47,774 nt of DNA, from the NCBI GenBank assembly GCA_949500635.1, contig CATAWQ010000001.1, forward strand, positions 1-47,774, written 5' to 3'. Numbering within the stretch: the first letter of the stretch is position 1; each line of letters starts with the position of its first letter. Source of the DNA: an uncultured Mycoplasmatota bacterium. GTDB lineage: Bacteria > Bacillota_I > Bacilli_A > Mycoplasmatales > Mycoplasmoidaceae. Position numbers and translations under genes: made by a program. Below, piece by piece: positions 5,644 to 7,124 of this stretch. The notes under the pieces are model-generated. The model worked only from the letters and a program-made list of their open reading frames with translations, did not search any database and was not told the DNA's origin.

Positions 5644-5666
5644 TTTGTTGTTTTTTGAGTTTTTTC

Positions 5667-5686
5667 AAAAAAAAAAAAAAAAAAAA
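5667..5686 (+). repeat. Homopolymeric A20 tract in promoter region of LRR lipoprotein gene
   Basis: Twenty consecutive A residues, then cgag and TATAAAT (5691-5697), AGGAG (5706-5710) and ATG at 5718. Confidence 0.95.
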
Positions 5687-5717
5687 CGAGTATAAATATA
5701 TGAATAGGAGAAAAAAT

Positions 5718-7124
5718 ATGAAAAATAAAAAATTATTAAAAACTATTTTATGTATTACTTCAGGAATTGGGTTTGCAACATCAATTCCGTTTATGACAAC
5801 TGCTTGCGCTTGTGGATCATCCTCTACTAAAACAAATATTTTACCTGATGATGTTTATAAGTATGATCCAAACGATTCTGCAATTTTAACAGGTTTTACA
5901 GATGAATTTTTGGCTAATCCCAATGCATACAAACAATATAACACTATGGAAATTCCTGCTAGTGTAACAAGTATTAGTGAAAGCGCCTTTTATAATCAAC
6001 TTACATTACAAACAGATATCCCATTATTCATTAAGAACTTAATTTTTGCAGATGGGTCTAATTGTTCTTCAATCGGTCAAGCTGCTTTTGCGTTATGTAG
6101 CTCGATAAAAGATATAAAAATTGACAACAATTATTTTCATGATGAACAATTAGGAACAAAAGGTAAAGCAGTAATTACTGGAAAAAGAGGACAAATTTCT
6201 TGAAATGATTCATCTGTTGCTGTAGGAAGTTTGGCTTGTGGAGATATTGTAATTCCTGCTAATGTTAGTTCAATTGTAGATTATGCTTTTGGTGGTTGTT
6301 CATCATTAACTTCTATTGATTTATCAAAATGTAATAATCTATCTTCTATTGGGGAAGCTGCTTTTGGATTATGTAACTCAATAAATGATATAAAAATTAA
6401 TAATAATTATTATCACGTTGAACAATTAGGAGCAAAGGGTAAGGTAGTAATTCAAGGAAAAATGGGAACGACTTCTTGAAATGATTCATCTGTTGCTGTA
6501 GGAAGTTTGGCTTGCGGAGATATTGTAATTCCTGATAATATTACTTCGATTGCAAATAAAGCTTTTCAAACGTGTGGAAAAATAACATCTCTTAATTTTC
6601 CAAGTAGTTTAGAATCAATTGGTTATGCTGCTTTAAATGGGTGCATATCATTAACTTCAGCAGATTTTTCTAATTGTACAAAATTATTAACAATTAGTAA
6701 TAGTGCTTTTGAAGCGTGCCAATATTTGAATTTAGTTAGTTTCCCAAGTACTTTAAGCGAAATTGGTGAAGCTGCCTTTTCTAATTGTGTGTCATTAAAT
6801 TCTGTGACACTCCCAAATAGTTTAATCAAAATTGGCAGGAATGCTTTTATGTTTTGTTCATCACTAACTTCTATAACGTTTCCTAATAATTTAATGGAAA
6901 TTATTCAAGGAGCCTTTTACAGCTGTACTAAATTAGGTTATATTGCTTGAGATTTGCCAGATGGATATGATAATAGTATAAATATTGGAAATGATGTATT
7001 TGCTAATATTTCATCTACAGGAAAAGTTAAATCCTTAAATCAATCAATTAGTTCTGATGACTTCTTAGCTTGAATCCAAACTAAAGGAAATTTCCCATCT
7101 AGTGGTTGAGAAGCTGAAGTTTAA
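5718..7124 (+). CDS. Surface lipoprotein with BspA-like leucine-rich repeats (family copy 1, intact)
   Basis: ORFs 5655.., 6231.., 6507.. share one frame across TGA (468 aa from ATG 5718). The signal peptide is MKNKKLLKTILCITSGIGFATSIPFMTTAC with a lipobox Cys. Repeated units of about 23-25 aa follow the pattern IP.nvtSI...AF..CssLtSi. The C-terminus is GNFPSSGWEAEV. Confidence 0.85.
5922..6238. repeat. Left arm of perfect 317-bp inverted repeat (partner 11984-12300)
   Basis: Checked base by base against the reverse complement of 11984-12300 with no mismatch. Weaker similarity extends outwards to the promoter cassette and inwards past 6500. Confidence 0.9.
6060..6534 (+). repeat. Tandem duplication with 276-bp period inside LRR copy 1
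   Basis: 6060-6258 resembles 6336-6534. The near-identical core tcttgaaatgattcatctgttgctgtaggaagtttggcttg(t/c)ggagatattgtaattcctg occurs at 6199-6258 and 6475-6534 (peptide WNDSSVAVGSLACGDIVIP twice). Confidence 0.85.

Follow-up and report, generated by a model that had tools for sequence, protein, structure and literature searches.

Two genes for leucine-rich-repeat (LRR) lipoproteins in this DNA are directly preceded by long runs of adenine, and the question that they raise is whether each run is a slippage-prone part of a promoter that varies the expression of its own gene. The window, by which we mean the entire 47,774-bp contig analyzed here, has a GC content of 27% and needs UGA to be read as tryptophan (genetic code 4) for its long open reading frames (ORFs). 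Its LysRS is 82-95% identical to those of metagenomic relatives and 65-69% identical to those of the best named relatives, which are metagenome-assembled genomes (MAGs) of Mycoplasmataceae/Mycoplasmoidaceae and Candidatus (Ca.) Malacoplasma girerdii (about 68% for the latter); because of these relatives, we take the source to be an uncultured member of the Mycoplasmoidaceae whose nearest named relative, judged by sequence, is Ca. M. girerdii. The window holds three LRR genes of one family, the intact lrrA and lrrB and the pseudogene lrrC (Table 1). Nine related contigs from uncultured mycoplasmas (L004-L010, L018, and L019) were recovered by exact-protein look-up in ENA, Logan, and NCBI assemblies, and together with the window they make up a pooled set of 121.9 kb and a small sample of 14 promoters. 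The tract feature is real, cannot be put down to chance, and is conserved throughout the lineage; the reading that we favor, and consider probable, is that slippage-prone promoter poly(A) tracts vary the expression of the LRR lipoproteins gene by gene, as contingency loci.

The anatomy is the same at all three copies in the window, which keep the order A(n) - C(G/A)AG - TATAAAT - 8 nt - AGGAG - 7 nt - ATG, with TATAAAT as the putative -10 element and AGGAG as the putative Shine-Dalgarno (SD) sequence. An earlier note on this DNA had placed 9 nt between TATAAAT and AGGAG; the gap is 8 nt, and the rest of the shared layout stands, as do the positions and strands of the A20, A18, and A7 tracts that it had listed. 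It had also claimed that a paralogous lipoprotein family shares a promoter cassette with tract length differing among the paralogs; in agreement with this, a degenerate 56-nt version of the cassette has three exact matches in the window and none in 100 dinucleotide-preserving shuffles. Runs of A or T in the window fall off geometrically, from 141 of length 6 to 50 of length 7, 19 of length 8, and a single one of length 9, after which the only runs are those of 18 and 20; words of 15 A are confined to the A18 and A20 tracts, with a shuffle mean of 0.12. When the copies are aligned, their similarity starts at the tract and is lost 5' of it.

Table 1. Location of the LRR lipoprotein genes of the window, their poly(A) tracts, and the associated elements.
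Feature	Position	Strand	Basis or remark
Terminator-like hairpin ~20 nt 5' of the lrrA tract, with a 13-bp stem and then a U-rich run	5616-5644	+	RNA fold
Poly(A) tract A20, lrrA promoter region	5667-5686	+	Sequence, run-length count
lrrA cassette: CGAG linker 5687-5690, -10-like TATAAAT 5691-5697, 8 nt, putative SD AGGAG 5706-5710, 7 nt	5687-5717	+	
lrrA, intact BspA-type LRR lipoprotein gene, 468 aa (code 4)	5718-7124	+	Pfam LRR_5 8.8e-55
lrrC pseudogene, ATG at 12498	11525-12498	-	TAA at codon 42, frameshift near 3' end
lrrC cassette: CAAG 12526-12529, TATAAAT 12519-12525, 8 nt, AGGAG 12506-12510, 7 nt	12499-12529	-	
Short tract A7, same cassette position, before the disrupted lrrC	12530-12536	-	Sequence
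Poly(A) tract A18, lrrB promoter region, TTTGTTGC directly before	41323-41340	+	Sequence, run-length count
lrrB cassette: CGAG 41341-41344, TATAAAT 41345-41351, 8 nt, AGGAG 41360-41364, 7 nt	41341-41371	+	
lrrB, intact BspA-type LRR lipoprotein gene, 279 aa (code 4)	41372-42211	+	Pfam LRR_5 6e-31

In the related contigs, the layout is found again before LRR lipoprotein genes, with tract lengths of 15-21: A21-CGAG-TATAAAT in L004, A16-CAAAG-TAAAAT in L006, A20-GATT-TATTAA in L008, A16-CGGT-TATATTT in L009 and, at two promoters of L010, T10A16-GAAG-TATAAAT and A15-GAG-TATATTT. The tract lies directly upstream of the putative -10 in L004, L006, L009, and L010 as it does in the window, where A18 and A20 end 4 nt before TATAAAT, and the general layout may be written as A(n) - 3-5 nt - TATAAAT/TATATTT/TAAAAT - 14-31 nt - ATG. 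In the pooled set, A/T runs become rarer up to length 10, lengths of 11-14 are missing, and ten runs measure 15-21. Each of these ten is poly(A) on the sense strand; nine immediately precede the start of an LRR lipoprotein gene, and the tenth (in L007) stands before a gene remnant, ATGAATTAATAA. The long tracts of the window and the related genomes, of 15, 16, 16, 16, 18, 19/21, 20, and 20 A, are exclusive to the LRR family. Genes whose products share just ~40% identity with those of the window still have this arrangement of A(n) and -10-like box, and the DNA 5' of the tract is not conserved; that a long unstable run is held in place across such divergence argues for selection. In 8 of the 14 promoters, a T-rich run ending in GTTG(C) adjoins the tract on its 5' side.

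Other family members have short tracts (A7, A8, and A9 in L007, A9 in L018, and A5 in L005), and the family gene at L006:6954 is preceded by none. The earlier note had linked the short A7 tract with the disrupted copy; as a rule, this was rejected since tracts of A7-A9 precede intact genes in L007 and L018. An intact LRR gene of L018 follows an interrupted tract at ~3890-3941, TTGTTGT-A7-TTT-A5-CAG-TATAAAT, perhaps a formerly long tract that has become 'locked'. Metagenome contigs were also searched with the generic pattern A15-N3-5-TATAWWT-N15-25-ATGAAHAARAAR, and six of the seven matches were low-complexity chance matches. The seventh, L017 1005-1022 (RCNI01017526.1), reads A18-GACCA-TATAAT-...AAAGGAGG and lies before an unrelated gene for a surface or membrane protein, whose product (MNKKIIKRL...) has 345 aa with code 4 vs. 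210 aa with code 11; this match hints that a different code-4 organism uses the same promoter design for another protein family.

Tract length differs among paralogs, from species to species, and, at one locus, between two samples. L004 (632-652) and L005 (1352-1370) represent the same locus in two ENA samples and are the sole same-locus comparison with independent samples; their sequences match at all 631 bp that precede the tract, which has A21 in L004 and A19 in L005. In another pair, L007 (4764-4783) and L008 (4468-4487), the contigs are 99.98% identical over 4,487 bp through an A20 tract and unrelated past it, where L008 runs into an LRR lipoprotein gene and L007 into the remnant ATGAATTAATAA and a gene for a HAD hydrolase. 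This divergence is either a strain difference, with gene loss at the tract, or a fork in the assembly graph.

The tracts are very probably associated with promoters, and they are plausibly a phase-variation device. In the mechanism that we propose, each BspA-type LRR lipoprotein gene would be its own transcription unit, and its promoter would consist of the conserved -10-like TATAAAT and a long sense-strand poly(A) 3-5 nt upstream. Runs of 15-21 A would be prone to slipped-strand mispairing in replication, such that tract length would change at high frequency and independently for each gene. A change in length would alter the distance and the helical phase between the -10 and the upstream T-rich/GTTGC element, together with the bend of the A-tract, and the outcome would be heritable and reversible differences from cell to cell in the LRR lipoproteins that are made. 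As contingency loci, the genes would then work by a mechanism of the Vlp type. We infer from the layout that TATAAAT is the -10, that slippage is frequent and that length controls transcription, whether in an ON/OFF or in a graded manner.

The proposed separate transcription agrees with the RNA folds. Terminator-like hairpins with U-runs are found 20-30 nt 5' of the tract at lrrA and in L004, L007, and L018, with z from -2.7 to -3.4 (for lrrA, the fold of 5596-5666 has -13.9 kcal/mol and z = -3.4); no equivalent hairpin was found before lrrB or the lrrC pseudogene. A hairpin so close on the 5' side leaves just the tract-containing segment for a promoter, such that each LRR lipoprotein gene looks like a separate transcription unit.

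Several observations weigh against a switch driven by tract length. Coverage is ~4x in both L004 and L005, and the L005 contig ends at this copy, where the homopolymer is followed by four mismatches (three to A, one to T) that are probably sequencing errors; because of this, the A21/A19 difference is suggestive only as length variation at one locus. L007 and L008 have the same A9 and A20, though perhaps they derive from the same data, and intact paralogs carry stable-looking tracts of A7-A9, or none. All tract lengths were taken from assembled contigs, hypermutation being a prediction. A consensus scan of the three copies found no sense-strand -35/-10 pair with a spacing of 16-18 nt, and no single tract length gives the GTTGC element canonical spacing, for which n of ~12 would be needed and lengths of 11-14 were not seen. 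In the vpma promoter of M. agalactiae, a poly(T) tract next to the -10 was shown to be without a role in switching (PMC2268961).

The geometry bears on how the tract could act. The earlier note had set the tract in the place of the -35/-10 spacer, which we rejected: tract and linker together measure 22-25 bp at A18-A21, therefore the -35 position falls inside the tract, and no -35 lies at 16-18 nt. If TATAAA is taken as the -10, A20 spans about -17 to -36. Tract lengths form a short class of 7-9 (about 8) and a long class of 15-21 (about 18), a difference of approximately one helical turn that may be a coincidence in 14 promoters or may reflect a phase-dependent upstream contact. It is conceivable, but in our judgment improbable, that the tracts are part of a -35-independent two-state promoter, in which length sets the helical phase of an upstream contact (with alpha-CTD or an unknown activator) and drives a combinatorial display of BspA-type proteins. 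The logic of such a promoter would be closer to that of the vlhA (GAA)12 than to that of vlp.

The lack of a -35 at canonical spacing and a tract that spans about -17 to -36 would also suit a static promoter element, in which the A-tract serves as the UP-like, bent, or easily melted upstream part of a -10-only mollicute promoter and its length drifts neutrally by slippage. The occurrence of two broad length classes (5-9 and 15-21) instead of one ON length fits this as well, and the poly(T) beside the vpma -10 in M. agalactiae offers a precedent (PMC2268961). However, the other promoters of the window have -10-like boxes with no preceding A-tract, and runs of 15-21 are limited to one surface-protein family, the gene class that is expected for contingency loci. 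A static element would have no need of a perfect unstable homopolymer, and yet just 1 of the 14 promoters is interrupted (A7TTTA5, L018). We regard this explanation as possible but on balance unlikely.

A-rich leaders can enhance translation, and if transcription started upstream of the tract, the poly(A) would lie in the 5' untranslated region and act on translation, mRNA stability, or transcriptional slippage and not on promoter strength. Many weak -10-like hexamers are available for such a start in the AT-rich upstream DNA, for example TATATT ~40 nt before the lrrB tract, but this DNA is not conserved, whereas the TATAAAT downstream of the tract is, with a constant distance of 20 nt to the ATG; moreover, hairpin and tract are just 20-30 nt apart in L004, L007, and L018, with poor promoter material between them, and we consider a transcribed leader very unlikely. 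It appears scarcely credible that short-read assembly created the homopolymers or their lengths. The sequences are indeed assembled from metagenomes, lengths near 20 are error-prone and contigs break or fork at the tracts (the end of L005, L007 vs. L008), but the same cassette position is found in independent ENA, Logan, and NCBI assemblies and in different species, and the tracts lie within long contigs and have normal sequence on either side. Because they recur in independent assemblies and lie inside contigs, their existence is secure, and their exact length is uncertain by 1-2.

Slippage-driven variation of the kind that we favor has well-known counterparts in mycoplasmas. Two secondary accounts (PMC10502178, PMC2268961) describe, for the Vlp system of M. 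hyorhinis (Citti and Wise 1995), a poly(A) beside the -10 in the promoter of each gene, where indels switch transcription, and, for M. hyorhinis vlp, M. arthritidis maa2, and M. mycoides vmm, indels of the -35/-10 spacer that switch expression. According to these summaries, the genes of the window resemble vlp in that they make up a family of several surface-lipoprotein genes that share a conserved 5' region, apparently separate transcription, and a poly(A) next to the -10, which here is a putative one, and they differ in that the vlp indels fall in a -35/-10 spacer, whereas here the corresponding stretch measures 22-25 bp and has no recognizable -35. Thus, the likeness to Vlp drawn by the earlier note is apt as an analogy and does not extend to the spacer geometry. 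In addition, the proteins of the window are of the LRR_5/LRR_8 type (BspA type, Pfam) and do not belong to the Vlp family of tandem-repeat proteins, their genes occur scattered or as small tandem groups whereas vlp is one cluster, and their switching is a prediction.

Ca. M. girerdii has 26-28 BspA-like genes, for which simple sequence repeat (SSR) length variation was seen at the level of reads and eight of which are predicted to be phase-variable (PMC4206474, PMC5476646); Ca. M. trichamica shares the BspA-like family (PMC10557491). Both girerdii and the source of the window are Mycoplasmoidaceae with BspA/TpLRR (LRR_5) surface proteins. The girerdii switches are dinucleotide repeats inside the ORFs that act by frameshift (PMC5476646), and most of its BspA proteins are anchored by a C-terminal transmembrane segment, signal peptides being present in few (PMC4206474), in contrast to the LRR proteins of the window, which have a putative N-terminal lipoprotein signal and whose SSR is a promoter homopolymer. 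Tandem Repeats Finder detected no dinucleotide repeats within 5718-7124, 41372-42211, and 11525-12498, and an intragenic switch of the girerdii kind was rejected for these genes on this ground. Conversely, the supplement of PMC5476646 reports no promoter homopolymers in girerdii.

Homopolymer tracts precede 28 surface-protein genes in M. yeatsii, where they have 14-17 nt (PMC4408338), seven lipoprotein genes in M. californicum (PMC4081997), and five vpb genes in M. bovoculi (PMC3931370). In these species, as in the window, perfect A or T tracts stand before surface genes and combinatorial phase variation has been proposed; the clades and the protein families are different, and there as here the proposals are sequence predictions. 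M. gallisepticum vlhA has a (GAA)n upstream of the core promoter, of which exactly 12 units are needed in a manner that is not spacer-based (PMC6258824, PMC10502178), and M. mycoides Vmm has a (TA)n promoter repeat (PMC10502178). Both systems share with the window an SSR in or near the promoter that sets, or here would set, the transcription of single members of a lipoprotein family, but their repeats are tri- and dinucleotides whereas the window has homopolymers, and transcription of vlhA is presumed to depend on an activator or an alternative sigma factor.

The earlier note had not recognized the combination of promoter tract and BspA-type gene as a described system. We found no report of a promoter poly(A) before BspA-type genes, within a coverage of the literature that is incomplete and leaves such absence unproven; still, the combination is less new than the earlier note had suggested, as both SSR phase variation of BspA genes (PMC5476646) and homopolymers before surface genes were already known. 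What is new is the cargo family, the lineage, and a geometry that departs from the spacer model, whereas the kind is well known: promoter homopolymers before surface-protein genes are a textbook class in mycoplasmas, and no new mechanism is opened. If the reading of the tracts as slippage switches is true, uncultured host-associated Mycoplasmoidaceae would vary their repertoire of BspA-type, adhesin-like proteins by switching the transcription of single genes. Beside the intragenic dinucleotide repeats of girerdii, this would be a second way of varying the BspA display in the lineage, whose known relatives are associated with trichomonads. The tracts would serve as markers by which phase states could be tracked in metagenomic reads, and they are likely points at which contigs break or fork in MAG assemblies.

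The BspA-type LRR identity of the genes, as the earlier note had it, is borne out by the LRR_5 matches of lrrA and lrrB. All three products begin with MKNKKLLKT...TTAC followed by GSSS, with a lipobox-like Cys, and the N-terminus (MKNKKLLKTVLCVTSGIGFATSIPFMTTAC, then GSSS), with its basic start, hydrophobic core, and ...TAC Cys, reads as a lipoprotein signal. The LRR proteins of this type also have a conserved C-terminal tail, ...GNFPSSGWEAEV. The MKNKKLLKT signal peptide is common to at least 11 distinct database proteins whose LRR bodies differ. Within the window, the DNA of the 5' cassette and signal peptide is 88-92% identical among lrrA, lrrB, and lrrC, and the LRR bodies of lrrB and lrrA/lrrC are 63-87% identical, depending on the segment; a conserved 5' end with divergent bodies is the usual arrangement of mycoplasma variable-lipoprotein families. 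The closest paralogs (P0001, P0002, P0004, and P0005, NCBI-only) are probably from the same assembly as the window, and the exact-protein look-up located no contig for them. A family-alignment scan of species-representative genomes, a set outside the lineage of the window, gave just three distant LRR matches (Eubacteriales, Ca. Ureaplasma intestinipullorum, and Clostridia), and a DNA pattern of the signal peptide had 0 matches in metagenome contigs.

lrrA and lrrC are 93% identical over 521 nt in inverted orientation, and by their sequences they appear to be recent inverted duplicates. The inverted repeats, at 5680-7112 for lrrA and 11525-12536 for lrrC, have further arms at 81-91% identity, and homologous recombination between them could therefore invert the intervening segment. 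They flank a 1251-aa ORF (7220-10975, +), which we take to be purL-like, and purE (10975-11424, +), an AIR carboxylase gene by Pfam. Among the LRR genes there is also an alanine dehydrogenase-like gene (12602-13759, -; Pfam AlaDh_PNT), in keeping with the catabolism of alanine that is on record for the girerdii lineage (PMC10557491).

At its start, the window has a (GA)9.5 repeat (1-19) and, after it, TAA and a hairpin. Next come two genes for N6_N4 DNA methylases and an unassigned ORF of 427 aa, possibly a restriction enzyme (94-918, 908-1678, and 1662-2945). Repeats in restriction-modification genes have been proposed as sites of phase variation, (GA)n in M. bovoculi and other dinucleotide units in Ca. 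M. girerdii, and the contig probably broke at the (GA)n repeat.

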